DNA from: an uncultured Bacilli bacterium
Lineage (GTDB): Bacteria > Bacillota_I > Bacilli_A > RF39 > UBA660
Reading direction: 5' to 3'
DNA length: 64,000 nt
Assembly (NCBI GenBank): GCA_910584655.1
Contig: CAJUBJ010000005.1
Span: 16,229-80,228 of the forward strand
The position numbers and the translations under genes are program-made. This document shows, piece by piece, positions 1,881 to 51,852 of this stretch. Position 1 is the stretch's first letter, and the number at the start of each line of letters is the position of its first letter. The notes under the pieces are model-generated. The model was not told the origin of the DNA and made no database searches. It worked only from the letters and a program-made list of their open reading frames with translations.

Positions 1881-2582
1881 ATGGCTTATATAGAATTTAA
1901 AAATATCAGTAAGAAATATCAAATGGGAGAAATAGAAATAAAAGCACTTAATAAAGCAAATTTCACAATTGATGAAGGAGAACTTGTTGTAATACTAGGA
2001 CCATCAGGTGCTGGTAAAACAACTTGTTTAAATATCTTAGGCGGAATGGATGAACCTACATCAGGTACTTTTACTATTGATGGAACTAAAATAAGTGAAT
2101 TGAAAAATAAAGCTTTAATAAAATATCGTCGTAATGATATAGGTTTTGTCTTTCAATTTTATAATTTAATTCAAAACTTAACAGCTTTAGAAAATGTTGA
2201 ATTGGCAGTTCAATTATGTAAAGATCATTTAAACCCAGAAACAATTTTAAAAAAAGTTGGATTAAAAGATAGAATGAACAACTTTCCAGCTCAATTGTCA
2301 GGAGGAGAACAGCAAAGAGTTGCTATTGCTCGTGCTATTGCTAAAAATCCTAAATTACTTTTATGTGATGAACCAACAGGAGCTTTAGATTACAAAACTG
2401 GTAAGCAAATATTAAAACTTTTAGAAGACACATGCCATAAAGAAAATATGACTATCATTATAGTTACTCATAATAGTGCAATTGCAGAAATGGCAGATAA
2501 AGTTATTAAATTTAAAAATGGTCAAGTTGAAGAAATATATTTAAATCCAAATCCTCGTCCAATAGAATCAATAGAGTGGTAA
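1881..2582 (+). CDS. ABC transporter ATP-binding protein (MacB/LolD/FtsE-like)
   Basis: Walker [10 protein letters not shown], signature LSGGEQQR, Walker [10 protein letters not shown]-loop VTHN. Start moved to the [11 protein letters not shown] after an AAGGGTG RBS. Confidence 0.93.
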
Positions 2583-2583
2583 T

Positions 2584-5500
2584 ATGAAAAAAAATCATAT
2601 AAAAACAAATTCTTATCGTACAATTAAAAAATCTTTTCCAAGATTTTTATCTTTAATGATAATGAGTCTTTTAGGAGTATTAGTTTTTGTTGGTCTTACA
2701 GCAACATCTCCAGATATGTTAAATACATTAGATAAGTTTTTTGATGATAAAAATACATATGACATAAAACTATTATCTACTTTAGGGTTAACTGAAGATG
2801 ATTTAAATGCCCTAAAAGATATTGACACTATAGAAGATATTGAAGGAATATATAGTAAAGATATTTTAATTCAAGATGAAGAAACAGAAATAGTTTTAAA
2901 TATTTCATCACTTCCTAAGAAAATAAATGAACTTGAGCTTATTGATGGACGCTTACCAGAAAATGATACCGAAATTGTAGTTGAAAAAAATTTCTTGACT
3001 AAACTCAATTATAACTTAAATGATAAATTAATTATCAATGATGAAGTTTTTAAAAATAAAGAAGTAACAATAGTAGGTACAGTTAGAAGTCCATTATACT
3101 ATAATAATACTGCAATAAATCAAAATAGAGGAACTACTACTATTGGAACAGGTACAATAAATTATTACTCTTATATTCTTCCATCAAACTTTGACATTGA
3201 TTATTATACAAACATTTTTATAACAGTAAAAAATGCCAAAAAAGAAATAACTAGTAAAACTAAATATAATGAACTTATTGAAGATACCCTTAATAAAATT
3301 GAAAGTATAAAAACTTTTCAAGAAGAAAGTCGCTATAATACCATTTATAACGATGCATCCAATAAAATAATTACTGAAGAAAATAAAATTAATAAAGAAT
3401 TAAAAGAAGCAAAAATAAAACTAGATGATGCTAAAACTCAATTAAATAAAGCAAAAAAAGAATTAGATTTTACAAAAACTCAATTAACTTCATCAAAAAA
3501 ACAACTAGATAATGCTTATAAAGAATTAGAACGAGGAAAAAAAGAATTTCAAAATACAAAAGATAAATATGGTATAGAAAATATAGCTAATACTTTAAAC
3601 GATGTTAATAACTCAATTAATAATCTTACAGAATTATTAAAAAATATACCATCTACAGAAGAAGAGTATCAAGTATATAAAACTCAACTTGAAAAGTTAT
3701 ATGAACAACAATATTTATTAAATACGTTAAAAAATACAGAAGATTTACTTAATAATAATACATCAGAATATAATAAAAATTATTCCAAATATCAAACAGC
3801 AAATAATCTTTATTCTTCAGGTTTAAAACAATATAATAAAAATCTTAAAATATATAATGACTCTTTAAATGAGTATGAAGACAATAAAAAAATAGCTTTG
3901 AAAGAAATAAATGATGCTTATACAAAACTAACAGATATAAAAAGGCCTAAATGGTATATAAACACTAGAGAAGATGATCAAACATATTCTTCATATATAA
4001 ATCAGACAAAAAGTCTAAATAGTCTTGCTAAACTGTTTCCATTAGTTTTCTACGCTGTTGCTATTTTGGTAAGTTTAATTTCAATGAATCGTATGGTTGA
4101 AGATGATCGTGGAGAAATTGGAACTTTAAAATCTCTTGGTTTTACAAATCATGAGATAAAGAAAAAATATACTTCGTTTTCTTTACTAGCAACTTTAATT
4201 GGAGCCATAATTGGAACAATAATTGGCTTAACAATTATTCCATATATAATATTTACAATATATCGTCTTTTATTTGATGTCCCTAACTTCCAAATAGGAT
4301 TAAATATTAATAGTACTTTAACTGGAATAATAATTGCTATTATTTGTATTTGCGGATCATCAATTATTACAGCAAATAAAATCTTAAAAGAAAAACCAGC
4401 TACTTTAATGCGTCCTAAAGCACCAAAAGCTGGTAAAAAAATTCTTTTAGAGAAGTTTACTTGGTTATGGCACAAAATAAAATTCTCCAATAAAATAACC
4501 ATTCGTAATATTCTAAGATATAAAAAGAGAGTATTAGTAACTATATTTGGTATATCAGGATGTACAGCCTTAATTTTATGTGGTTTCGGTATTAAAGATT
4601 CAATAGTTGATATAACTAATATGCAGTATGTAAATACTTTTAAATATGATGCCACAGTATTTACTAATGATTTAAATATTGAAAAGCTAGATAAAGTATT
4701 ATCTAATAGTAAAATAAAATCATATACATTATCAGAGACCTTATCAGGAACTTTAAAAGATTCGAATATAAATATTATTGTAACTGAAAATAATGATATT
4801 TCTAAAATAATTAATTTAGTAAATAAAAAAAATGAAAAGTTATCCAATTTAGAAAATAATAAAATAGTAATTACTGATAAACTTGCTGATTTATACAAAA
4901 TAAAAGAAGGAGATAAAGTAACCTTCTATGATAGCGAAAAAAATGAATATAATCTTGAAGTATCAAACATTGTAAAAAATTATCTAGGTCATTATATTTA
5001 TATAAATAAAGAAACATTAAAGGCAAATCAAAAAGAATATAAACCTAATGTAATATATTTAAATACTGATAAATTGTCTTCACAAGAAGAAAAAGACCTA
5101 TCTAATGAACTTTTAGCAACTGATGAAATAATTAATGTTATTTATACATCTGACTTAGTAAATAGTGCTAGCGATATGTTATCTTCTTTAGACAAAGTAG
5201 TTATAATATTAGTGTTATTATCTGCTATGTTATCTTTTGTAGTTTTATATAATTTATCAAACATTAATATAACCGAAAGAAAAAGAGAAATAGCTACTTT
5301 AAAAGTATTAGGATTTTATGATAATGAAATTGATAACTATATAACAAAGGAGAATATTATTTTAACAATTATAGGAATAGCAATAGGACTTTTATTTGGA
5401 TATTTCTTAACTAATATGACAATATCAACAGTTGAAATGGAAAATGCTCGTTTTATAAGACATATTAAAATAAATAGTTACATATATTCTTCTCTTATAT

Positions 5501-5685: not shown

Positions 5686-6726
5686 ATGAAAATTTTAGTA
5701 ACCGGAGGATGTGGCTTTATTGGGAGCCATACTTGTTGTGAACTTTTAGATAATAATTATGAAGTTGTTATTATAGATAATCTTTGTAATTCAAAAAGAA
5801 ACGTTATAGATAAAATAAAAAAAATAACAGGTAAAGATATTGCATTCTATGAAGAAGATGTTTGTAATAAAGAAGCATTAAAAGTTATATTTGAAGAACA
5901 TAAAATTGATGCCGTAGTTCATTTTGCTGGTTTAAAAGCAGTTGGTGAATCAGTAGCTAAACCTTTAATGTACTATCGTAATAATCTTGATTCAACATTA
6001 AGTTTATTAGAGGTAATGAATGAATACAATTGTAAAAAAATTGTTTTCTCATCAAGTGCTACTGTTTATGGTACACCAGAGTCACTACCGATTAAAGAAG
6101 ACTTTCCATTATCAACAACAAATCCATATGGTTCAACTAAATTAATGATTGAAGACATAATGAGAGATTTATATGTTTCAGATAATGATTGGAGTATAGC
6201 ATTACTTAGATATTTTAATCCAATCGGAGCTCATAAAAGTGGTTTAATTGGTGAAAATCCAAATGGAATTCCTAATAACTTAATGCCTTATATTATTAAA
6301 GTTGCAACTGGAGAACTTCCAGAATTAAGTGTATTTGGTAATGACTATGATACTCCAGATGGAACAGGAGTAAGAGATTATATTCATGTTGTAGATTTAG
6401 CAAAAGGACATATTAAGGCTATCGAAAAAGTCCTTAGTACTAAAGAAGTTGATTGCTATAATTTAGGAACAGGAAAAGGTTATAGTGTTCTTGACTTAGT
6501 AAAAACATTTGAAAAGGTTAATGACGTTAAAGTTAACTATCGTATAACAGATCGTCGTCCAGGGGATATTGCTGCTTGCTATGCAGATCCAGCATATGCT
6601 TTAAAAAAATTAGGATGGAAAGCTGAAAAAGATATTGAAGAAATGTGTCGTGATAGCTATAACTTTATAATTAATGAACACATTAACAAAATAGATGAAA
6701 ACGAAATAGAAAAGCTTGAAGAATAA
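5686..6726 (+). CDS. galE: UDP-glucose 4-epimerase
   Basis: N-terminal Rossmann GGCGFIGSH, catalytic YGSTK (YxxxK), full-length collinearity with GalE (..LRYFNPIGAH..GVRDYIHVVDLA..), RBS AAGGAGG. Confidence 0.93.
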   Translation: MKILVTGGCGFIGSHTCCELLDNNYEVVIIDNLCNSKRNVIDKIKKITGKDIAFYEEDVCNKEALKVIFEEHKIDAVVHFAGLKAVGESVAKPLMYYRNNLDSTLSLLEVMNEYNCKKIVFSSSATVYGTPESLPIKEDFPLSTTNPYGSTKLMIEDIMRDLYVSDNDWSIALLRYFNPIGAHKSGLIGENPNGIPNNLMPYIIKVATGELPELSVFGNDYDTPDGTGVRDYIHVVDLAKGHIKAIEKVLSTKEVDCYNLGTGKGYSVLDLVKTFEKVNDVKVNYRITDRRPGDIAACYADPAYALKKLGWKAEKDIEEMCRDSYNFIINEHINKIDENEIEKLEE

Positions 6727-6742
6727 AATCAAGCTTTTTTTC
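6711..6742 (+). terminator. Rho-independent terminator
   Basis: 9-bp stem aaagcttga/tcaagcttt with the stop codon in the loop, then T7. Confidence 0.75.
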
Positions 6743-6827
6743 TTTACTTCTTTGGCAAAAGGAATAGTCTTTTTATTAAAAAAATGTTAATATAATAATG
6801 ATATAGTTTAAAAATAGAGGTGATAAA

Positions 6828-7484
6828 GTGGACAATAAAGATAAAGACTTTGTAGTTAATCAAATACCTTTAAAAATAAAGCCTGTTAAGTCACCTAAAA
6901 AAATAAAAGACACAAATAGTGTCTTAGACAAAAAATCAATTAAACTAAAAATATATTCGACAATAAAAATAATAGTAGTATTATTGCTTTTAATAATAAA
7001 TACATATTTAATAGTCACTATTGCAATAAAAATTGATGATAATAATAAAGTTTCTTTCAGAAATCCTAAAGAAACAACTAAACAACTATTATCCCCAAGT
7101 AAAATAGGTAACTGGAAAACATCTAATAATGGATTATTTATTTTTGGAGATGATAATAATTTTTATTGGTATGATAATTATGAACATTTAACTAGTAATT
7201 ATTATCTAGGTACTTATAGCTATAAAAATGGCTATGAAGCTTTAGAAGAAATAGGATATACAGAAGATGAGTTTTTTAAAACTTTTGGTAATAATACTCA
7301 AATAAATAATGCATACTCAATTAATATGAAGCCACTATATTCTTATCATGGCGGAATTGATACTACTTCTTCTAATATAACTGAAAAAGAGACATGGTGG
7401 TTCATTATGATAATAAAAGACGATGGAACAGCCCTTGCTTATAACAAAACTCTAGACTTACATTATACTTTAAATAAATATTAG
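6828..7484 (+). CDS. Single-pass membrane protein, function unknown
   Basis: GTG start after a GAGGTG RBS. One TM helix (IIVVLLLLIINTYLIVTIAI) and an aromatic-rich C-terminal domain. Confidence 0.55.
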   Translation: MDNKDKDFVVNQIPLKIKPVKSPKKIKDTNSVLDKKSIKLKIYSTIKIIVVLLLLIINTYLIVTIAIKIDDNNKVSFRNPKETTKQLLSPSKIGNWKTSNNGLFIFGDDNNFYWYDNYEHLTSNYYLGTYSYKNGYEALEEIGYTEDEFFKTFGNNTQINNAYSINMKPLYSYHGGIDTTSSNITEKETWWFIMIIKDDGTALAYNKTLDLHYTLNKY

Positions 7485-23300: not shown

Positions 23301-24167
23301 ATGAAATTAGTTAATGATTTTCATGAGTATCAAATACTTGATATGTCTGAAGGAATGAAATTAGAAAGTTGGAATGGTAAAGAATTACTAAGACCAGATC
23401 CTCAAATAATTTGGAATAATAAATTCTATCCTCAATATTGGGAAAAAATAGACGCAACATATCATCGCAGTAACAAAGGTGGAGGATCATGGGAAGTTAT
23501 AAATAAAAATTTACCTAATTCTTGGCAAGTACATTATAAAGATTTAACGTTTAATATAAAACTCATGGGATTTAAACATACAGGTTTATTTCCAGAACAA
23601 GCCTATAATTGGAATTTAATAAGAGAAAAAATATCTTCTGCTAACAGACCTATTAAAGTTCTAAATCTCTTTGCTTATACTGGAGCCGCTTCTTGTGCAG
23701 CATTAAGTGCTGGTGCTGAAGTAGTACATGTTGACTCATCTCGTGGTATGGTTGACTGGGCTAAAGAAAATGTTGCATCGTGTGGTTTATCAGACAAACC
23801 AATCAGATTCTTAGTTGATGATGTAGTTAAGTTTGTTAAACGTGAAATAAGAAGAGGAAATAAATATGATGTAATATTAATGGACCCTCCATCATTTGGT
23901 CGTGGTGCCAATGGTGAAGTTTGGGATATTGAACGTGATTTATATCCTTTAGTCGAGTTATGCACAGAAATTTTAAGTGAAGACCCAATTCTATTTCTAA
24001 TAAACTCATATACAACAGGCCTATCAATGACTGTTTTAGAAAATGTTTTAAATCTAACAATAGGTAAAAAATACAAAGGTAATATTTCTAGTGATGAATT
24101 AGGCATACCAATGAAAAACAATGAACTTATTTTACCTTGTGGCATTTATGCAAGATGGGAAAAGTAA
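23301..24167 (+). CDS. Class I SAM-dependent methyltransferase (COG1092/RlmI-like catalytic domain, no PUA)
   Basis: Motif I VLNLFAYTGAAS and motif IV ILMDPPSFGRG. Confidence 0.8.
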   Translation: MKLVNDFHEYQILDMSEGMKLESWNGKELLRPDPQIIWNNKFYPQYWEKIDATYHRSNKGGGSWEVINKNLPNSWQVHYKDLTFNIKLMGFKHTGLFPEQAYNWNLIREKISSANRPIKVLNLFAYTGAASCAALSAGAEVVHVDSSRGMVDWAKENVASCGLSDKPIRFLVDDVVKFVKREIRRGNKYDVILMDPPSFGRGANGEVWDIERDLYPLVELCTEILSEDPILFLINSYTTGLSMTVLENVLNLTIGKKYKGNISSDELGIPMKNNELILPCGIYARWEK

Positions 24168-24249
24168 AAAAAATATATTTTACATGAATATATTTTTTTA
24201 TTTGTTAAAAAATATAATAAATGATATTATATATATAGTAGGTGATAAT

Positions 24250-25701
24250 ATGTTAAAACCAAAAGACTTTGAATTTGCTATAGATCAAACGATTCTTGAA
24301 CATCCAGAATTTAGTAGCCAAATGGTTGGAGGATTTATAAATCAAATCAATAATGGAATTAATCCTAAAATGTATACAAGAAAAAATGGAGCTCGTCAAA
24401 TAATGTCTCAAGCAACAGAAAGCGAACTTCTAAAATATTTTTTAGAAGAAGCTATAAAAATATTTAATGCAGCATCATATTTTTACTGGAATGATAAGTA
24501 TATTCAACAATTAAATTCAACTCAAGATAAAATAAATTATTTATCACAAACATTCCCATATTTTGGTGAAATTCAAAAATTAATTACAATAATTTCAGAT
24601 CCTAAAGTAAATAGTGTTTTATATGTAAAAACGAATCAAAACGAACTTATTGCTTTATTAACCTCTGTTTTAAATACTAAAATATTTACAGATAGAGTTT
24701 ATCGTGATTACATTGATAAAAATGGCTATGTTGAATCAATTCTTCCTAATGGTAAGACAGTCAACTTATTTGATAAATTTTCAGAAGACAATAAACGTGT
24801 TGCTACTGCAAAAAACATTCAAGTTAACCATGCTTCAATAAATAAATGCTTTAGTGAATTAATGTCTGGTAATCAGTTAAAAAATCAAAGAAATGAATAT
24901 GCTTTAGATGGCACATTATATGCTACCCAAGATATTGGTAATGTAAGATCAAATCAAGAAGATAGTGTTATAATTTTAACTCATCCTGAAAATCCTGAAT
25001 TTAAATTACTTGCCATTTCTGATGGAATGGGTGGTGTAGATAAAGGAGAAAAAGCAAGTTCATATATAATTCAAAAAATAACAAACTGGTTTAAATCGCT
25101 ACCAGTTGACTCATTTTATTATGCTGACCAAGTACAACAAGCATTTAACAATGAAATAGCTTCTGCGAGTTATGATATTTATAATAGCTATAATGCTGAC
25201 TTTAATAGAATAGTAGCTGGTGCAACATTTGTAGGAGCTATTGTAACATCAGATAAAACGATAGTTTCAAGTGTTGGTGATTCTCGTGCTTACGCTACTA
25301 ATGGTAATACATTAAATTTAATTACAAGAGATGAATCAGCAGTATGGCCTCCAGGACAATATATTACAGAAGAATCACTTGACGATTTAAGATTTAATAA
25401 AAAAAATAACGTCATAACACGCTGTATAGGACAACCTCTTGATAAAGTTCAATCTACTATAATAAGAAATGATGATTACTTAAGATTAATCTTAACTAGT
25501 GATGGAGTAACTGATCTTTTAACTACAGATAGAATAAGATTTATAGCCTTAAATTCTTCTCCAGAATTACTAACAAAATATTTAGTAGAAGAAGCTATAA
25601 CTTATGACGCAGTACGTTTAAATGGTGAAACACCAGAATTTAAGGGAGCAATAAAAGCAGGAAAAGATAATGCTACTGCAGCTGCTTTTATAAGGAGGTA
25701 A
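24250..25701 (+). CDS. PP2C-family Ser/Thr phosphatase with ~235-aa unassigned N-terminal domain
   Basis: The C-terminal half carries GNVRSNQEDS, ISDGMGGVDKGEKAS, VGDSRAY, LTSDGVTD and GKDNATAAAF (PPM motifs). Start set at the ATG after TAGGTGA. No motif recognised in the N-terminal half. Confidence 0.85.
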   Translation: MLKPKDFEFAIDQTILEHPEFSSQMVGGFINQINNGINPKMYTRKNGARQIMSQATESELLKYFLEEAIKIFNAASYFYWNDKYIQQLNSTQDKINYLSQTFPYFGEIQKLITIISDPKVNSVLYVKTNQNELIALLTSVLNTKIFTDRVYRDYIDKNGYVESILPNGKTVNLFDKFSEDNKRVATAKNIQVNHASINKCFSELMSGNQLKNQRNEYALDGTLYATQDIGNVRSNQEDSVIILTHPENPEFKLLAISDGMGGVDKGEKASSYIIQKITNWFKSLPVDSFYYADQVQQAFNNEIASASYDIYNSYNADFNRIVAGATFVGAIVTSDKTIVSSVGDSRAYATNGNTLNLITRDESAVWPPGQYITEESLDDLRFNKKNNVITRCIGQPLDKVQSTIIRNDDYLRLILTSDGVTDLLTTDRIRFIALNSSPELLTKYLVEEAITYDAVRLNGETPEFKGAIKAGKDNATAAAFIRR

Positions 25702-25712
25702 TCAACTAAATT

Positions 25713-25982
25713 ATGAATAAAGAAATAATCATAAAAAATGATAATAATGAAGAAAAAAAATTCGATATTTTATTTACTTTTGAATCAGAAGAAACCAATA
25801 AAAAATATGTTACTTATACAGATTATTCCAAAGATTACAAAGGTAAAATAAGATGTTGGTCTTCTTATTTTGAAGGTGAAGAACTTCATCCTGTAAAAAC
25901 AGAAAATGAATTAAGAATAATAGATGAAATGTTACGTACATTATCAAGAAGTACAGAACTAAAATATAGTATAGAAGAATAG
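25713..25982 (+). CDS. DUF1292-like small acidic protein
   Basis: 89 aa. The pattern ..EEKKFDILFTFESEETNKKYVTYTD....EGEELHPV.. is typical of the DUF1292 family. Confidence 0.6.
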   Translation: MNKEIIIKNDNNEEKKFDILFTFESEETNKKYVTYTDYSKDYKGKIRCWSSYFEGEELHPVKTENELRIIDEMLRTLSRSTELKYSIEE

Positions 25983-26005
25983 GAATTACTAAATTCCTTT
26001 TTTTA
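25981..26005 (+). terminator. Rho-independent terminator
   Basis: 7-bp stem aggaatt/aattcct, 4-nt loop, T6. Confidence 0.7.
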
Positions 26006-26016
26006 TATAGTAAAAT

Positions 26017-26045
26017 TTGTCTTAAATATTTATCTTTGATAAAAT
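26017..26045 (+). promoter_or_regulatory. Candidate sigma-A promoter for the kinase-like gene pair
   Basis: TTGTCT, 17-nt spacer, TAAAAT. Followed by an AAGGGGGA RBS. Confidence 0.4.
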
Positions 26046-26069
26046 ATCCCAAATAAGGGGGATTGTTCC

Positions 26070-26819
26070 ATGATTTATTATGATAGCAAAGGTAAAATAG
26101 TTGAATTTAATGGAGTAAAAACAAACTTAGAGGGTGCCAATGGCGAAATATACAAAATTAATAGTCAGATTGCATATAAAAAATATTTTAGTTATGGTGA
26201 ATGTAAAATAAAACAAGCTATCTTTGAATTTATAAAATCAATTAATAATCCTCACATAGTAAAATTATTAGAAAGATATTATCTTGCAGAGGATGTTATA
26301 GATTATGATATTTTTATGTATTTAGTTAATTTTATTGAAAGAGATATTTCAAAATATAATAATGATCACTGTAAAATAGAATTATACACTTATGAATGGG
26401 TAGAAGAAGAATATTTTGATATTTTAGAACAAACAGTAGACTATTTATTAGATAATTTAAACGAATTATTACGTTTAGCAGACTTTTTTAGTATGAATTA
26501 TATATCGCTTTCAGACATAAAAACAGCCAATATGGTTTGTAATAAAAGTAATATTGTGTTAATTGACCCTGATATGTACTATTTTGTTGATCCCAAAAAT
26601 GGTAAATTTAATTTAGCGATAGAAAATAGAAGATATATTTTAATGGTTATGAAGACATTATGTCAAAAGTTAACTGAATATCGTAATAATTCAATATCTA
26701 ATAATATTGCAGAACTATTTGAAAGTAGTATTAAATCACCTCAATACGGAGTATCATTATTATCAAAAAAATTATCAGGCTGTAGAATACCTCTAGATTA
26801 TGTAGCAAGGACAAAATAA
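26070..26819 (+). CDS. Minimal eukaryotic-like Ser/Thr protein-kinase-like protein (paralog 1)
   Basis: Gly-loop-like EGANGEIYK, beta3 lysine IAYKKY, catalytic loop LSDIKTANMV (D-x-K-x-x-N), Mg-binding LIDPD in place of DFG. 249 aa, no TM or sensor domain. Confidence 0.6.
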   Translation: MIYYDSKGKIVEFNGVKTNLEGANGEIYKINSQIAYKKYFSYGECKIKQAIFEFIKSINNPHIVKLLERYYLAEDVIDYDIFMYLVNFIERDISKYNNDHCKIELYTYEWVEEEYFDILEQTVDYLLDNLNELLRLADFFSMNYISLSDIKTANMVCNKSNIVLIDPDMYYFVDPKNGKFNLAIENRRYILMVMKTLCQKLTEYRNNSISNNIAELFESSIKSPQYGVSLLSKKLSGCRIPLDYVARTK

Positions 26820-26821
26820 AA

Positions 26822-27562
26822 ATGGAATATTATGATAGTAAAGGCAACCTAGTTGAACTAAATAAATCCAGCACTTCATACGAAGGTAGTAATGCTATTG
26901 TTTACAAACTAGAAAATGGAATTTCTTTTAAAGAATATTTTTGTAGTGGAGATACAATAATTTCTCAATCAATGTTTGAATTTCTAAAATCCGTAAATAA
27001 TCCTAATTTTATTAATCTAATAGATAGATATTATAAATCTTTAAAAGTAAAAGATTACAAAGCGTTTTTAAAATCAATAAGTGATACAACTCCCACAGAA
27101 GATATACGTAATATTGATACTTATAAAATTGATGCATATACATATTATTGGATTGAACAAGAATCAATTGATTTTCTAGAAGAAGATAAAGAATATATTT
27201 TAGAAAATTTTAGAGCTTTATTAAATCTTGCAGATTACTTTTCTCAAAATAGAATAGGACTAGCTGATATAAAAACTGATAATGTAATTTGCAATCAAAA
27301 TAATATTGTTTTAATTGATCCTGATATGTATTATTTTATTCCTGAATTTTCCAAAACTGACATTCATAAAAAGAACCGTTTAAGAATAATTTACCTAATG
27401 TCTTCTCTTTGCTGTCGTTTAACAAGACATAAAAGCTATGAAACTACAGACAAAGTAACAGGATTATTTAAAGAAAGTTTAGAAAGACCTGAACATGCTG
27501 AAAAAATTCTTTCAAAGTCCTTAAGAAATTATAAAAAAGCAATTGATTATATCAGAAAATAA
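26822..27562 (+). CDS. Minimal eukaryotic-like Ser/Thr protein-kinase-like protein (paralog 2)
   Basis: Collinear with paralog 1 (M.YYDSKG..VE.N, EGSNAIVYK, ISFKEY, LADIKTDNVI, NNIVLIDPDMYYF). Starts 2 nt after the paralog 1 stop. Confidence 0.6.
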   Translation: MEYYDSKGNLVELNKSSTSYEGSNAIVYKLENGISFKEYFCSGDTIISQSMFEFLKSVNNPNFINLIDRYYKSLKVKDYKAFLKSISDTTPTEDIRNIDTYKIDAYTYYWIEQESIDFLEEDKEYILENFRALLNLADYFSQNRIGLADIKTDNVICNQNNIVLIDPDMYYFIPEFSKTDIHKKNRLRIIYLMSSLCCRLTRHKSYETTDKVTGLFKESLERPEHAEKILSKSLRNYKKAIDYIRK

Positions 27563-27690
27563 GTAGGAGATAAATTATCTCTTTTTATATGTAAAAAAAT
27601 TGTCCTTTTAACTCATTTTAGAGTAAAGCCATGATATAATATAAATAAGACTTGATGATAAATTCAAGTTAAGAAAAGAGGAGAATATAA

Positions 27691-47703: not shown

Positions 47704-50700
47704 ATGAAGTTGAATAAAAAGTACACAGGATTATCAATCGTTGTTTGTTTAACTTTTGTTTTAATCTATTTTCTTTCTTCAACACATGCTGATGAAATAG
47801 TAGATAGAACAAATGAATTTAATGAATTTATAGTAAATAGTACAACTCCAGAAGGTGTAACAATTAATATGTTTGATTACTGGATAACAGATACAGATAA
47901 ACCTCAATATGATAATGTCATGCCAAGTGCAGTAAAGCAATTTAGCAATCAAAATATTCGTAGTTCTTCAGGTACACTAAATCCAGATCAAGGTATAAAT
48001 AAGAATCATTTATTTTTATTTAGAAATTCTATAGACCAAGCCTATGGTGTATGGAACTCTAACACTAGAAATTATTTAATTACTAATCCAGGACTAGTAC
48101 AAAATACATTAAGTGCAAATGGTTATCCTCTTTTAAATATAGACCAATTTATGTTAGTTTCATCTAATCGTACCTCAGCTTATCATTTATATCCAACAAC
48201 TCAAACCAACCCTTGGCAAACATGGTCTTACTTTGCAGGTGAGACTGATTCTGCCATATTTCCGCGCTTTGAAGATGCAAAAAATCAACCATATATTTTA
48301 AAACTCGGCGATGACGCTATGAAAGCAAACAAAGACGGACTAGCAACAGAATCTCTTGAATATTTATTTAATCCAACCTACAATCATCCAGGAAAAATAT
48401 CATACACAAACGTAAAAGGTTTATTTAAATCAGCTGGTGATGGATTTTACTATTATGATTGCAAAGAAAACTTTGCTACTTTAGAATATGACATAAATGA
48501 TATTGATCCAACAAGAAAAGTTGTTGATGGAGCTTCAATAAAATTGTATGAAAAACCACTTGTATTTGAAGACTCAGGTACAAAAAAAGAAATGTTTTTC
48601 CCTTTTAATAAGGTATCCGACTTTTTTGAAATAAAAAATGGCGATCTTGTAGAAAAAGATGGTTTAATTAATACTGATGCTGGTTTGGTTGAAAATGCTA
48701 ATCACTTTTTTGGAGTAGAAATGACCGTTCCTTTTCTAGTTCCAGAAAATGGTGTTCTTACTTTAATAGACGAAGAAGGGAATGAAACGGAAGAAGAGAT
48801 TAAATTCGACTTTACAGGAGATGATGACCTTTGGGTTTTTATTGATGATGTATTAGTTTTAGACATAAGTGGTTTCCATACAGGAATGCCAGGGTATATA
48901 AACTTTTCAACTGGAGAAGTGTATAGAGAAACATCACCAGCAGGTTGGACACGTCCACCGGTAATAAATATACAACAAAGTACTACAATGAAAGCTCAAT
49001 TTGAAAGAGCTGGCAAATTTAATCAAGAAGATTGGGAGCAAACAGAAGAAGGAAACTGGATTTTAGCTTCAAATACAAGACATACAATGAAAGTTTACTA
49101 TTTGGAAAGAGGACATGTTGCATCAACTATCAATATTAAATTTAATTTACAAACTCAAATTCCTATAGATTTGAAAAAAATAGATCGAGATGAAAAAGGC
49201 ATTGAAGGAGTAGAATTTGAATTATATCAAGCAAAAGGATATAAACCAACAGGTGATGCTGCTGATGTAACATTAGATGACGTTAAATCCTATATTACAC
49301 CAGAAAATCTAATTACAACTATAATAACTGATGAAAATGGACAAGCAACGTTTAAAGAAAATAATGGCAGTGGCATTAGTGAGAAATTAATAAATTTTTC
49401 AGCTTATTATAACAACGGAAATGGAACACAAATATATATTCTAAAAGAAAAAAATGTTCCAAGTAATTTTCAACCGCTTGCAAACGAAGTTGTCTTAAGA
49501 TACGACCCAAATTTTTCAATGCTTGTAGTAAACAACAAATTTGAAACTGGAGCCTACGCTAATTTTAGATCAACTATATATGGTAATAACCAAATAACTT
49601 ACTCAACACTTAATGAAACAACGGGAGACATTCCTTACACTGATAGTCAGCTTATAAGTGACATAGTGCAAGAAAAAGGCTTGATTATCGGTATACCTTT
49701 AGTAAATAATAATGGATGGTATCCTATTTATGGAAGTAACCAAAAAGGTTTTAGTGCTCCAGATGAGTCATATGGAGATATAAATAATCGTATTTTAGCT
49801 TCAATTCTTTATCAAGCAATTGATGAAGATACTCCAAATTGGTATTTTAAATATAATAATAAAACAAAGCGTTTAGAAGCAACATTTGATCAAATGCCAG
49901 GTACAGCAGATCGCTACAGACTTAAATCATTAGAAAATGATGATGGTGATATGCAAATGGCATATGGAATAATTAATGACATTGGTTTAGAAAATCTAGG
50001 AATAAAAGGAAAAAGTCCAGAAGAACGATATGAAGCACTAATAATGTATTTAAAACAACAAGTAAATGATGGAAAAACAACTGAAGAAGTAGTTAAAGAA
50101 ACAATAAATAAATTAAATGCAGTTAACAATTTTAGTCTAGTAAATATTGATAGATTTTCTCGTAACTTTAGTTCAACAATATATATCCCAAATGATACAA
50201 GAGAATTAATAGTAAACAAAATAGATGAACAAGAAAATCCTGTTAATGGAGCAGTATTCTCAATATATAAAACAGAAGAAGATGCAAATAATAATACAAA
50301 TCCAATAGCAACTGGAACAACAGGAACTGTAAAAGGACAAGATGGTGTATTAATTTTTACTCCAAATGTTTTAAGTTCAGAAGGATATGCGTATGCATCA
50401 TGGACAGGTGCAGAAGTTGGAACAAGATATTATTTAAAAGAAGTCTCCGCTCCAGAAGGATATGTTCTAAATAAAACAATAGTTCCAATTGTATTAGGTG
50501 CACATTCAATTTATGCTGATGCAGGAACTAGTAATGACGGAATATCGGTAAAAGCTGGTATAGGAAGACTGGTTAAAACTATGCATAGATATGCCATAGA
50601 TAGAAATGTAGATATTACTTTAAGAGATATCAAACTAATTGCCCAAACACAGGAATCTAATAACTTTATTGTAAATGATTGGCATGACTCTCCAGGGGGA

Positions 50701-51852
50701 GAAACAATAGAATTACATACATATCCAAATACAGATGCAACTTACACATTACATAAAGGTCAAGAAGGAAGTACATATATAGAAGCAGAAACAGGTTTTA
50801 TTAGAACACGAGTTATACAAAACTATAATAAACATACTGATCCTTCTGAATACGAATATGTTCCAGTTCTAGAACGAAAAGTAGATGAAGACTTAACTGA
50901 TATATATAGAATAGTTAACATAGTTGTAGTAAGAAACAAACGTCAAACTAGAACAATATCAGGTATTGCTTTTGAAGATTTAAATAAAGATGATTTATAT
51001 ACTGAATCAGAGGATACGTTATTACCTAATATAAAAGTTTCATTAATTAATCCAATTAATAATTCCATAATTGAAGAAACTACAACTAATGATAAAGGAT
51101 ATTATATTTTCAAAAACTTAAATTTAGATAAATACATAGTTAAATTTGAATTAAAAAATGGATATATAGTAATAGAAAAAGGAATTGAAAATAATAGCAA
51201 TAAAGCTAATCCAGATGGAAAAACTGATGAAATTGAATTTGATTCAACACTAGATTCTTTGTTAGATATTGAAAATATAAATTTAGGCTTAAGAATTGTT
51301 AAATTTATGTTCACAAAAATAGATGGAAATAATAGAGATGCTCCAATAAAAAATGCTGGTTCGTTTGAATTCTATGAATATATTTGTGATATAGAAAATG
51401 AAGAACTATATACAAGTTTAGTAAAAGACAATCCTAATTGTTTTAAACAAATAGGACAAACCACTAGAACAGATGAAAATGGAATAGTAGAATTCAGTAA
51501 ACTAGAGGCAACTAATTATCGATTAGTAGAAAGTGACGCCCCAGACGGATTTGTAAGACCAAGTGGGGAATGGAATATAACTTTTAGTAGTGGTAACATA
51601 AAGTCAATTGAATGCATTGGAGGATCTGAAGGTGGAAAATGTCCAGCATTTATAAACATAAAAGAAGAAGGTAAACTTTACTTACCAAATTTAAAAGCTG
51701 CTTCAATTCCAAATTCAGGAGGAATAGGAAGAATCATAATCACTTCTTTTGGAGTCACAACAATGGGAGTAGGATTATTAATTCTTATTAGTGACAAAAA
51801 GAAAATATCTATTATTTTAAATAGAATTAAAAAAAGAACAATTGCAAAATAA
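47704..51852 (+). CDS. 1382-aa cell-surface adhesin: PA14/fibro-slime-like domain, SpaA/Cna-B-type isopeptide-fold domains, SdrD-B-like domain, C-terminal IPNSG sorting signal
   Basis: Signal peptide ..VVCLTFVLIYFLSSTHA. FDFTGDDDLWVFIDDVLVLDISGFH (PA14/fibro-slime). GVEFELYQ.., GAVFSIYK..YYLKEVSAPEGYVLN, FEFYEY..YRLVESDAPDGFV (SpaA-like). ISGIAFEDLNKDDLY..NDKGYYIFKNLNLDKYIVKF (SdrD B). Ends IPNSGG, hydrophobic helix, DKKK. Confidence 0.8.
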   Translation: MKLNKKYTGLSIVVCLTFVLIYFLSSTHADEIVDRTNEFNEFIVNSTTPEGVTINMFDYWITDTDKPQYDNVMPSAVKQFSNQNIRSSSGTLNPDQGINKNHLFLFRNSIDQAYGVWNSNTRNYLITNPGLVQNTLSANGYPLLNIDQFMLVSSNRTSAYHLYPTTQTNPWQTWSYFAGETDSAIFPRFEDAKNQPYILKLGDDAMKANKDGLATESLEYLFNPTYNHPGKISYTNVKGLFKSAGDGFYYYDCKENFATLEYDINDIDPTRKVVDGASIKLYEKPLVFEDSGTKKEMFFPFNKVSDFFEIKNGDLVEKDGLINTDAGLVENANHFFGVEMTVPFLVPENGVLTLIDEEGNETEEEIKFDFTGDDDLWVFIDDVLVLDISGFHTGMPGYINFSTGEVYRETSPAGWTRPPVINIQQSTTMKAQFERAGKFNQEDWEQTEEGNWILASNTRHTMKVYYLERGHVASTINIKFNLQTQIPIDLKKIDRDEKGIEGVEFELYQAKGYKPTGDAADVTLDDVKSYITPENLITTIITDENGQATFKENNGSGISEKLINFSAYYNNGNGTQIYILKEKNVPSNFQPLANEVVLRYDPNFSMLVVNNKFETGAYANFRSTIYGNNQITYSTLNETTGDIPYTDSQLISDIVQEKGLIIGIPLVNNNGWYPIYGSNQKGFSAPDESYGDINNRILASILYQAIDEDTPNWYFKYNNKTKRLEATFDQMPGTADRYRLKSLENDDGDMQMAYGIINDIGLENLGIKGKSPEERYEALIMYLKQQVNDGKTTEEVVKETINKLNAVNNFSLVNIDRFSRNFSSTIYIPNDTRELIVNKIDEQENPVNGAVFSIYKTEEDANNNTNPIATGTTGTVKGQDGVLIFTPNVLSSEGYAYASWTGAEVGTRYYLKEVSAPEGYVLNKTIVPIVLGAHSIYADAGTSNDGISVKAGIGRLVKTMHRYAIDRNVDITLRDIKLIAQTQESNNFIVNDWHDSPGGETIELHTYPNTDATYTLHKGQEGSTYIEAETGFIRTRVIQNYNKHTDPSEYEYVPVLERKVDEDLTDIYRIVNIVVVRNKRQTRTISGIAFEDLNKDDLYTESEDTLLPNIKVSLINPINNSIIEETTTNDKGYYIFKNLNLDKYIVKFELKNGYIVIEKGIENNSNKANPDGKTDEIEFDSTLDSLLDIENINLGLRIVKFMFTKIDGNNRDAPIKNAGSFEFYEYICDIENEELYTSLVKDNPNCFKQIGQTTRTDENGIVEFSKLEATNYRLVESDAPDGFVRPSGEWNITFSSGNIKSIECIGGSEGGKCPAFINIKEEGKLYLPNLKAASIPNSGGIGRIIITSFGVTTMGVGLLILISDKKKISIILNRIKKRTIAK

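Follow-up and report, generated by a model that had tools for sequence, protein, structure and literature searches.

A tandem pair of minimal protein-kinase-like genes from an undescribed family in an uncultured Bacilli bacterium

The gene pair and its transcription signals

In a 64,000-nucleotide stretch of the genome of an uncultured Bacilli bacterium (assembly GCA_910584655.1, contig CAJUBJ010000005.1, positions 16,229 to 80,228 of the forward strand; hereafter "the window"), two adjacent genes, here called kinA and kinB (names used for genes and products alike), encode small proteins resembling the core of Ser/Thr protein kinases. kinA (26070..26819, plus strand) encodes 249 amino acids and kinB (26822..27562, plus strand) 246 amino acids, that is, products of 25-kDa size. 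The TAA stop codon of kinA is followed by two nucleotides and then by the ATG codon of kinB. Over 247 residues, and with one gap, the two proteins show 42% identity and 66% positives (BLASTP, E = 5e-72), and they have in common the blocks M.YYDSKG, F.EF.KS.NNP, LAD[FY]FS and NIVLIDPDMYYF. Their similarity is far above chance. They are true paralogs, as had been proposed in an initial annotation of the region.

Both proteins are predicted to be minimal and protein-kinase-like, with identical catalytic residues at identical positions (K37, D149, K151, N154, D166, and D168; the numbering of kinA holds for kinB). Pfam and NCBIfam scans reveal no transmembrane (TM) segment, PASTA repeat or further domain, consistent with their earlier description as stand-alone proteins. 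A hidden Markov model (HMM) of the family, which kinA matches with an E-value of 3e-71, finds no third member in the window, nor does the window contain another Hanks-type catalytic-loop motif.

A consensus scan predicts a sigma-A-type promoter with a ribosome-binding site (RBS) in front of kinA (26017..26062, plus strand). The -35 box TTGTCT (26017-26022) is followed by a 17-nucleotide spacer and by an extended -10 element, TGATAAAAT, ending at 26045; the RBS, AAGGGGGA, was read from the sequence at 26055-26062. A TGnTAnAAT element and then a strong RBS precede the kinase gene in 11 other loci, those of very distant members included. Two candidate terminators, each made up of a weak hairpin and a T-run on the plus strand, flank the pair. 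The first (25981..26005; -5.6 kcal/mol, z = -1.3) follows the upstream gene, which encodes a DUF1292 protein, and the second (27565..27588; -6.5 kcal/mol, z = -2.0) follows kinB. Both AT-rich hairpins are insignificant relative to shuffled sequences and were missed by the criteria of the terminator scan; similar elements recur after the upstream gene and after the kinase gene in three related loci (L006, L007, and L019). No hairpin is found between kinA and kinB, and hence the two genes are probably co-transcribed. With a promoter and a terminator of their own, the kinase genes would therefore lie outside the operon of the PP2C phosphatase gene found further upstream, and kinA-kinB is predicted to be a transcription unit separate from PP2C-DUF1292. 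The promoter and terminator of the initial annotation can be retained as predictions.

Fold, catalytic residues and family

An alignment of 88 diverse homologs was used to count conservation column by column. K37, D149, D168, Y106, and a small residue at position 25 occur in all 88 sequences; N154, D166, Y39, and N185 in 87. Position 27 is V or I in 84 sequences, G22 is kept in 83, and position 151 (K or R, 81%) and P167 are each conserved in 71. Such column conservation indicates strong constraint on the predicted Ser/Thr-type kinase motifs, namely the Gly-loop, the beta3 Lys, the D-x-K-x-x-N loop, and the Mg-binding Asp. The catalytic loop reads DIKTAN in kinA and DIKTDN in kinB, both of the Ser/Thr type. 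The His and Arg of the HRD motif are absent before D149, which makes these proteins non-RD kinases. The DFG motif is replaced by D-P-D, within I-D-P-D, and both of its Asp residues are conserved.

A model of kinB was built by AlphaFold2 with the 88 homologs (predicted local distance difference test score, pLDDT, 96.3; predicted template modelling score, pTM, 0.92). It replaced a model made with just nine close sequences, which had a poor N-lobe (pLDDT 59.6, Foldseek E ~0.01). The next long helix starts at residue 178, only about 10 residues after D168, and neither the model nor the alignment contains an activation loop, a P+1 loop, an APE motif or alphaG, the elements of subdomains VIII-X of Pkinase. 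Helices are retained at the positions of alphaE (123-142) and alphaF (178-199), and three more are modelled. Thus, the initial annotation was right about the missing activation segment and APE motif, to which alphaG can be added, and overstated the loss of the C-lobe. The family is set apart by an MxYYDxxG beta-hairpin at the N-terminus, a SKKLxxxKxPIDY tail at the C-terminus, and an insert of variable length between beta4 and beta5, which is longer in the clade of the window.

Structure searches with this model give kinases. Foldseek returned 468 matches in the PDB at E<=1e-3, of which the best 50 are all kinase-fold and nearly all protein kinases, including PKR, PknG, Src, JAK2, and YabT of B. 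subtilis (probability 1.00, TM-scores 0.45-0.54); the RNA kinase Ark1 (8yv5) ranks 25th and Rio2 (1zao) 34th. In BFVD, 101 matches were obtained at E<=1e-3, and those listed are Ser/Thr kinases, a Bacillus phage kinase coming first, together with a few unnamed entries and one polyprotein. Against PDB sequences, the family HMM matches only kinases. The top match is CDKL3 (E = 1.8e-4), with which the Gly-loop, beta3, and the catalytic loop (GEGSYGTV / VAIKIF / HRDIKPEN) all align in register, and the second is the kinase domain of a class III lanthipeptide synthetase. On the modelled fold and the catalytic residues together, kinA and kinB are kinase-fold proteins within the superfamily termed protein kinase-like (PKL). 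Of the core listed in the initial annotation, the beta3 Lys, the catalytic Asp and Asn, and the metal-binding Asp are near-invariant, and the Gly-loop, beta3 Lys, and catalytic loop are in register with CDKL3. Among the outcomes that would have spoken against that annotation, a non-kinase fold and loss of the catalytic residues in most orthologs were not encountered.

No model of Pfam, NCBIfam, PHROG or PADLOC reaches its threshold for either protein. kinA has zero matches in Pfam and PADLOC and only chance-level ones in NCBIfam and PHROGs (E >= 0.18). kinB has sub-threshold matches to Kinase-PolyVal (E = 0.0025, 18.3 bits, for a cutoff of 27 bits) and, in PADLOC, to STK_OB (E = 5e-4) and PD-T4-6 (E = 6e-3). 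The PADLOC matches span 40-60 residues of generic catalytic loop, and neither a full-length match nor an OB-fold or other partner gene of these two systems is found. Pkinase (PF00069) is matched by neither protein at E<=1. Across the 88 members, Pfam gives weak matches to Kinase-PolyVal (five members), Pkinase (four, the best with E = 5.3e-5), PK_Tyr_Ser-Thr, YrbL, and ABC1 (one each), plus two further single non-kinase matches, with nothing at threshold. The APH, Choline_kinase, Kdo, WaaY, and RIO1 models are unmatched in all 88 members, and the RIO, Bud32, and Kdo-kinase models of Pfam and NCBIfam are unmatched by kinA, kinB, and the 88 members alike.

Just eight close relatives turned up in a word-indexed search covering 5.8 billion proteins. 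With an exhaustive profile search across 1.84 billion cluster representatives, 430 were recovered at E<=1e-3, 224 of them at E<=1e-10; these representatives stand for clusters at 50% identity. Among the 150 of the 430 that were listed, most are ~200-260 amino acids long, the exceptions being a few shorter fragments. Wherever a source gives the organism of a member, it is a metagenome-assembled genome (MAG) of uncultured Bacilli, and the three GTDB genomes recovered with the family are also MAGs of this kind. Such sources give only "hypothetical protein [Bacilli bacterium]", since the hosts are uncultured gut Bacilli known from MAGs alone. tblastn found no relatives in collections of 50,697 phage records and 72,556 plasmids, and there are none in IMG/VR; a phage or plasmid origin is thus unsupported. 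The family is previously undescribed and uncovered by the four profile libraries searched, as the initial annotation had surmised.

Among described kinases, the Hanks-type Ser/Thr kinases (PF00069; for example YabT and PknG) are nearest. They share the bilobal fold as well as the order and spacing of the Gly-loop, beta3 Lys, D-x-K-x-x-N, and Mg-binding Asp, and they provide the best Foldseek and profile matches of the family. In contrast with them, the family has no match at the Pfam gathering score, lacks the HRD His and Arg, the activation loop, APE, and alphaG, has D-P-D in place of DFG, and consists of proteins of ~245 amino acids with the MxYYDxxG hairpin and the KxPIDY tail. Kinase-PolyVal (PF18762), the minimal kinase domain that polyvalent proteins carry in phages and conjugative elements, has a similarly small core (a model of 160 positions). 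It is the Pfam family matched by most members (5/88), over the region from alphaE through the catalytic loop to the Mg loop. However, kinA and kinB belong to a stand-alone, chromosomal family, of which the searched collections of phages, plasmids, and viruses contain no member; kinB stays below the bit cutoff and kinA is unmatched.

Gene neighbourhoods and evolution

The pair is preceded on the same strand by three genes. The first encodes a methyltransferase dependent on S-adenosylmethionine (SAM) (23301..24167, plus strand). The second encodes a PP2C Ser/Thr phosphatase (24250..25701, plus strand), matched by Pfam PP2C/PP2C_2 and, below cutoff, by a Stp1-type NCBIfam model. Its open reading frame runs from 24121 to 25701; the likely start is 43 codons further on, at 24250, because the orthologs have 483-487 amino acids. 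The translation contains the motifs RxxNQED, DGMGG, GDSR, SDG, and DNAT, and an N-terminal domain of ~225 residues has no Pfam match. The third gene, which begins 11 nucleotides past the PP2C stop codon, encodes an 89-residue, UPF0473-like DUF1292 protein (25713..25982, plus strand; Pfam DUF1292, E = 2.5e-4; NCBIfam family PRK13678 also matches). The phosphatase gene noted initially upstream of the pair is therefore present, with the DUF1292 gene in between. DUF1292 genes typically sit downstream of ruvX (PMC13014144); the literature on them revealed no functional tie to kinases. Downstream of kinB lie an enolase gene and then genes for very large VWA/Flg_new surface proteins.

The order PP2C-DUF1292-kinase is kept in the window and in loci L001-L007 and L019-20, at kinase identities as low as 33-41%, while the flanks of the trio change: a methyltransferase or a radical-SAM gene upstream, enolase or a NifU-like gene downstream. 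The trio is confined to the subclade of the window, roughly 10 of ~155 clustered family sequences. PP2C and DUF1292 genes, separated by a few to about a dozen bases, are adjacent in L001-L007, L019-20, and L024-27; their pairing is conserved far past the kinase adjacency. In L024 (PP2C 38% identical) and L026 (44%), the two genes occur without an adjacent kinase-family gene. A 234-residue gene after DUF1292 in L024 and unannotated genes around the L026 PP2C were considered as divergent kinases and rejected, as no HMM matched them at E<=10. The PP2C proteins with the additional N-terminal domain form at least 182 clusters, all of about 480-510 amino acids, and this domain diverges at the rate of the catalytic domain or faster.

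Relatives of the kinases at <=34% identity have unrelated neighbours and no PP2C gene nearby, so that the synteny comparison called for initially gives a split answer, with a kept gene order in the window's subclade and unrelated neighbours for the other members. In L008, L014-16, and L023 the kinase gene follows an NrtR-regulated NAD-salvage cluster; in L017-18 it precedes a MiaB-like radical-SAM gene. In L009-L013 it comes after glycosyltransferase/ABC-2 exporter genes and faces a class-I methyltransferase gene. Within the largest subclade, 19 loci have Obg, Ham1, PepF, HlyIII, a pyridoxal-phosphate enzyme, HrcA, an M23 peptidase, and others as neighbours. All-against-all clustering of the neighbours within 4 kb at ~40 loci recovers only traces of an ancestral block (RlmI-like methyltransferase, MiaB-like radical SAM, PepF, and the dnaK operon).

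Three sets of loci deserve a separate description. NAD-salvage genes (NrtR, NMN adenylyltransferase-like, CinA, NadE, and PnuC) lie close to the kinase in L008, L014-16, and L023 (kinase at 7001) and also in L017 (490-4353). The proximity, seen in two sets of loci that differ in arrangement, may be due to chance or to residual synteny; at the two loci inspected for it, L014 and L023, a separate promoter precedes the kinase. A downstream gene of 229-235 residues in L008, L014, and L023 was discarded as a hidden paralog (hhalign probability 0.1%). In L021-22, the kinase has a SigF-like gene on one side and spoVA genes on the other. The start of the SigF-like gene is overlapped by a SpoIIAA-like STAS gene (L021, 5926-9281, and L022), with no SpoIIAB-type (GHKL) anti-sigma kinase between them. 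From the SigF-like gene to spoVAC, these loci encode the kinase-family member, a 367-residue protein with HipA-like motifs (by eye) and no recorded Pfam match, and a 131-residue protein; spoVAC/AD/AEB follow the family member. Finally, L037 encodes, 3 kb downstream of its family member, a second and different stand-alone kinase-like protein of 267 residues (6603-7406; Pkinase E = 2e-6, below cutoff; family HMM E = 1.6e-4), and genomes of this type may encode minimal kinases of several kinds.

Identities between the window and its relatives L006, L007, and L019, in this order, show how unevenly the neighbourhood evolves. The methyltransferase is 92 and 83% identical in L006 and L019 (no ortholog on the L007 locus) and enolase 91 and 90% identical in L007 and L019 (none on the L006 locus). 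The values are 82, 72, and 70% for DUF1292, 68, 56, and 43% for PP2C, 66, 56, and 41% for kinA compared with the first or only kinase copy, and 50, 41, and 33% for kinB, the 50% being with the second copy of L006. Within the neighbourhood, PP2C and the kinase evolve fastest, and they do so at parallel rates, a suggestive pattern that is nevertheless drawn from three comparisons. The kinase family diverges much faster than its neighbouring genes; in the L009/L012 pair the kinases are 58% identical and the neighbouring methyltransferases 88%.

The single-copy gene found in related genomes is orthologous to kinA, and kinB is a duplicate common to the window and L006 that diverges faster, which points to sub- or neofunctionalisation. 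Independent tandem duplications occurred at least four times, in the window/L006, L017-18, and L023, each with two copies, and in L009, with three; paralogs within a locus are among each other's closest relatives. In the sister contig L005 (logan SRR7702465), a single in-frame hybrid gene (2504-3244, protein P0002) replaces kinA-kinB. About the first 162 nucleotides of kinA are fused to kinB, with a crossover in a shared 9-nucleotide stretch, TTTGAATTT, and the flanks are identical to the window at 599 of 600 positions. The hybrid is probably a real product of unequal recombination, encoding a full-length chimeric kinase, because nine bases are too short for a collapse of the de Bruijn graph at an assumed k of ~31. 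That the family diverges fast and has repeatedly duplicated in tandem suggests a rapid change in its substrates or partners.

Other parts of the window also contain large surface proteins. Directly after enolase (29040-37926), a 1025-residue VWA protein and a 1091-residue protein with Flg_new, SHIRT, and DUF11 repeats are followed by four small genes, one of them with a weak signal-peptidase (S26) match. A counterpart gene of this cluster in L019 has a faint match to Peptidase_M73 (camelysin/TasA-like). The surface proteins are 38-62% identical between relatives, a quick divergence, and the cluster may be a fibre or adhesin assembly locus. Further on (47704-51852), a 1382-residue protein with SpaA, SdrD_B, and Gram-positive pilin D1 matches is followed by a 631-residue protein with cadherin-like domains, both large and of surface/pilus type.

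Function, alternatives and significance

Our preferred reading, to which we give a probability of roughly 0.6, is that kinA and kinB are active, constitutively expressed, cytoplasmic minimal kinases of Hanks-type, or eukaryotic protein kinase (ePK), descent, most likely phosphorylating protein Ser/Thr. That they are at least active PKL phosphotransferases of a new family is very probable. Three features make protein Ser/Thr the most likely acceptor: the D-x-K-x-x-N loop, nearest neighbours of the ePK type, and sequence echoes of Pkinase and Kinase-PolyVal. Beside the observed fold matches, motif conservation, paralogy, family size, and gene contexts, we infer the activity, the type of acceptor, and the mode of regulation as follows. 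ATP would be held by a degenerate Gly-loop (G22-x-x-[AGS]25-x-[VI]27) and by the beta3 Lys K37, and phosphotransfer would proceed via the catalytic loop D149-x-K151-x-x-N154. Mg2+ would be bound by D166 of the I-D-P-D motif, aided by the invariant D168, and N185 in the following helix may replace the alphaF Asp of ePKs. Lacking an activation loop, P+1/APE, and alphaG, the enzymes would be constitutively "on" and would owe their specificity to surfaces outside the canonical peptide groove; regulation would then pass through partners or substrates. The two genes would form a bicistronic unit transcribed from a housekeeping-type promoter, with kinA as the ancestral copy and kinB as its tandem duplicate.

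Several points weigh against this reading. The alphaC acidic residue, given as an alphaC-type Glu in the initial annotation, is present (E53), yet the column holds D or E in just 54 of the 88 homologs (61%). TM-scores against real kinases are moderate, ~0.5, and hence the C-lobe is remodelled. Loss of the P+1/APE/alphaG peptide-binding platform is also typical of non-protein kinases and ATPases such as RIO, Bud32, ArkI, and Kdo kinase. The clustering of neighbours yields no conserved operon partner across subclades that would hint at a substrate. Finally, kinase activity is a prediction from sequence and modelled fold.

The alternative that survives best, itself compatible with the preferred reading, is a dedicated pair: marks set by kinA (and kinB) would be removed by the upstream PP2C, the DUF1292 protein would be a substrate or adaptor, and the set would replace PrkC/PrpC in this lineage. 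As in the PrkC/PrpC operon of Firmicutes, the PP2C gene is found a short way upstream of the kinase gene and in the same orientation. The persistence of the trio while both flanks change argues for such a pair. So do the parallel identities of PP2C and kinA (68/66, 56/56, and 43/41%, against 92/83 for the methyltransferase and 91/90 for enolase), the intact catalytic motifs of PP2C, and the fact that the 64-kb window has no other Hanks-type catalytic loop. On the other side, the kinase has its own promoter, with a terminator-like hairpin after DUF1292; adjacency is limited to one subclade; the relatives at <=34% identity sit beside NAD-salvage, glycosyltransferase, chaperone, and other genes; and two PP2C-DUF1292 loci have no family member alongside. 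In addition, the rate tracking amounts to three comparisons, and the recurring neighbours (methyltransferase, radical SAM, PepF, and the dnaK operon) resemble residual ancestral synteny. A dedicated pair is thus possible and can be put forward only tentatively, and the kinase-phosphatase module of the initial annotation is weakened. Its statement that the arrangement is not the classical PrkC/PrpC one is borne out: kinA and kinB have no TM segment or PASTA repeat, a DUF1292 gene intervenes, the phosphatase carries an extra ~225-residue N-terminal domain, and the co-transcription typical of PASTA modules is not predicted. It is decidedly doubtful that a PP2C with a novel N-terminal domain and a minimal kinase are the main Ser/Thr phospho-signalling pair of these bacteria, in replacement of a PASTA kinase.

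Unlikely, if slightly less doubtful than this last proposal, is phosphorylation of a small molecule (a metabolite, a sugar or a cell-envelope precursor), as carried out by the Kdo, heptose, choline, and aminoglycoside kinases that share the fold. Such an activity would fit with the absence of a peptide-binding activation segment and with the position of some members, next to glycosyltransferase/ABC-2 exporter genes in L009-L011 or to NrtR-regulated NAD-salvage genes in L008, L014, L023, and L017; diverging paralogs in tandem arrays are also common for small-molecule kinases. However, the 88 members match none of the APH, Choline_kinase, Kdo, WaaY, and RIO1 models while Pkinase and Kinase-PolyVal appear, the catalytic-loop Lys typical of Ser/Thr protein kinases is K or R in 81%, and ePKs are the nearest structures. 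Moreover, the metabolic neighbours vary by locus, and the kinase has its own promoter at every locus inspected, including L014, L023, L009, and L010.

An ATPase switch like RIO or Bud32, or an RNA kinase like ArkI, would bind or hydrolyse ATP, or phosphorylate RNA, instead of phosphorylating protein. Size, the loss of the activation segment and of substrate-binding subdomains, and the recovery of Ark1 (TM-score 0.59 when normalised to the length of Ark1) and Rio2 by Foldseek speak for this possibility. In contrast, both structures rank under dozens of ePKs and there is no sequence-profile signal, RIO1 of Pfam included. The median isoelectric point of the family, 6.1, equals the background of the window; the proteins are not basic, and therefore no nucleic-acid-binding surface is suggested. 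RIO, Bud32, and ArkI are ancient, slowly evolving housekeeping factors, unlike this lineage-restricted, fast-evolving, and duplication-prone family. This makes the ATPase or RNA kinase very unlikely. The likeness to Bud32, RIO, and Kdo kinases put forward initially holds for size; in sequence and fold, Hanks-type kinases are nearer.

Equally improbable is a role in conflict or defence, as an abortive-infection Ser/Thr kinase or a toxin with PP2C as antidote. The weak kinB matches to STK_OB, PD-T4-6, and Kinase-PolyVal, a divergence far faster than that of neighbouring genes, the recurrent and independent tandem duplications, the recombinant hybrid of the sister strain, and the proximity in L021 of a protein with HipA-like GDRHxxN / YDN motifs (by eye) would be consistent with it. 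Nevertheless, these library matches are sub-threshold and cover the generic catalytic loop only, kinA has none in PADLOC, and phage, plasmid, and IMG/VR collections contain zero relatives. The neighbourhoods are of housekeeping type with residual synteny and are not islands; a mobile-element gene is near one locus only (L010). The defence module of the initial annotation is thus unsupported, and so is its spore-associated role, since a sigma-A-type promoter precedes the kinase at every locus inspected and the sporulation context of L021 looks like an insertion. A replacement of SpoIIAB, with the kinase phosphorylating the STAS protein and a SpoIIE-like PP2C, is rejected, as the arrangement was seen in a single lineage, the kinase is preceded by a sigma-A-type promoter of its own, and the L021 STAS protein has, in an alignment by eye, D-F-K-G at what we take to be the D-S-S-G phospho-acceptor of B. 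subtilis SpoIIAA.

To return to the preferred reading of active minimal Ser/Thr kinases, the family is well populated and structurally confident, has unusual evolutionary dynamics, and shows neither a conserved partner nor signs of a new mechanism. New PKL families are reported regularly: a single 2026 oral-microbiome preprint described 15 (10.64898/2026.09.18.752743), and its main text mentions neither Bacilli, Bacillota, PP2C nor minimal kinases. For this reason, the finding is incremental rather than conceptual. If the minimal kinase and PP2C did form the main Ser/Thr signalling pair in place of a PASTA kinase, this would amount to a new architecture of Ser/Thr signalling in bacteria, and the speed at which kinase and PP2C diverge would reflect an arms race or rapid substrate retargeting. 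The profile, the high-confidence model, and the defined catalytic residues make the family testable. With about 430 clusters at 50% identity, it is a well-populated branch of the bacterial kinome that was unannotated in four profile libraries, and it shows how far the Hanks-type core can be trimmed, to ~245 residues with no activation segment and with D-P-D, while its catalytic residues remain near-invariant.

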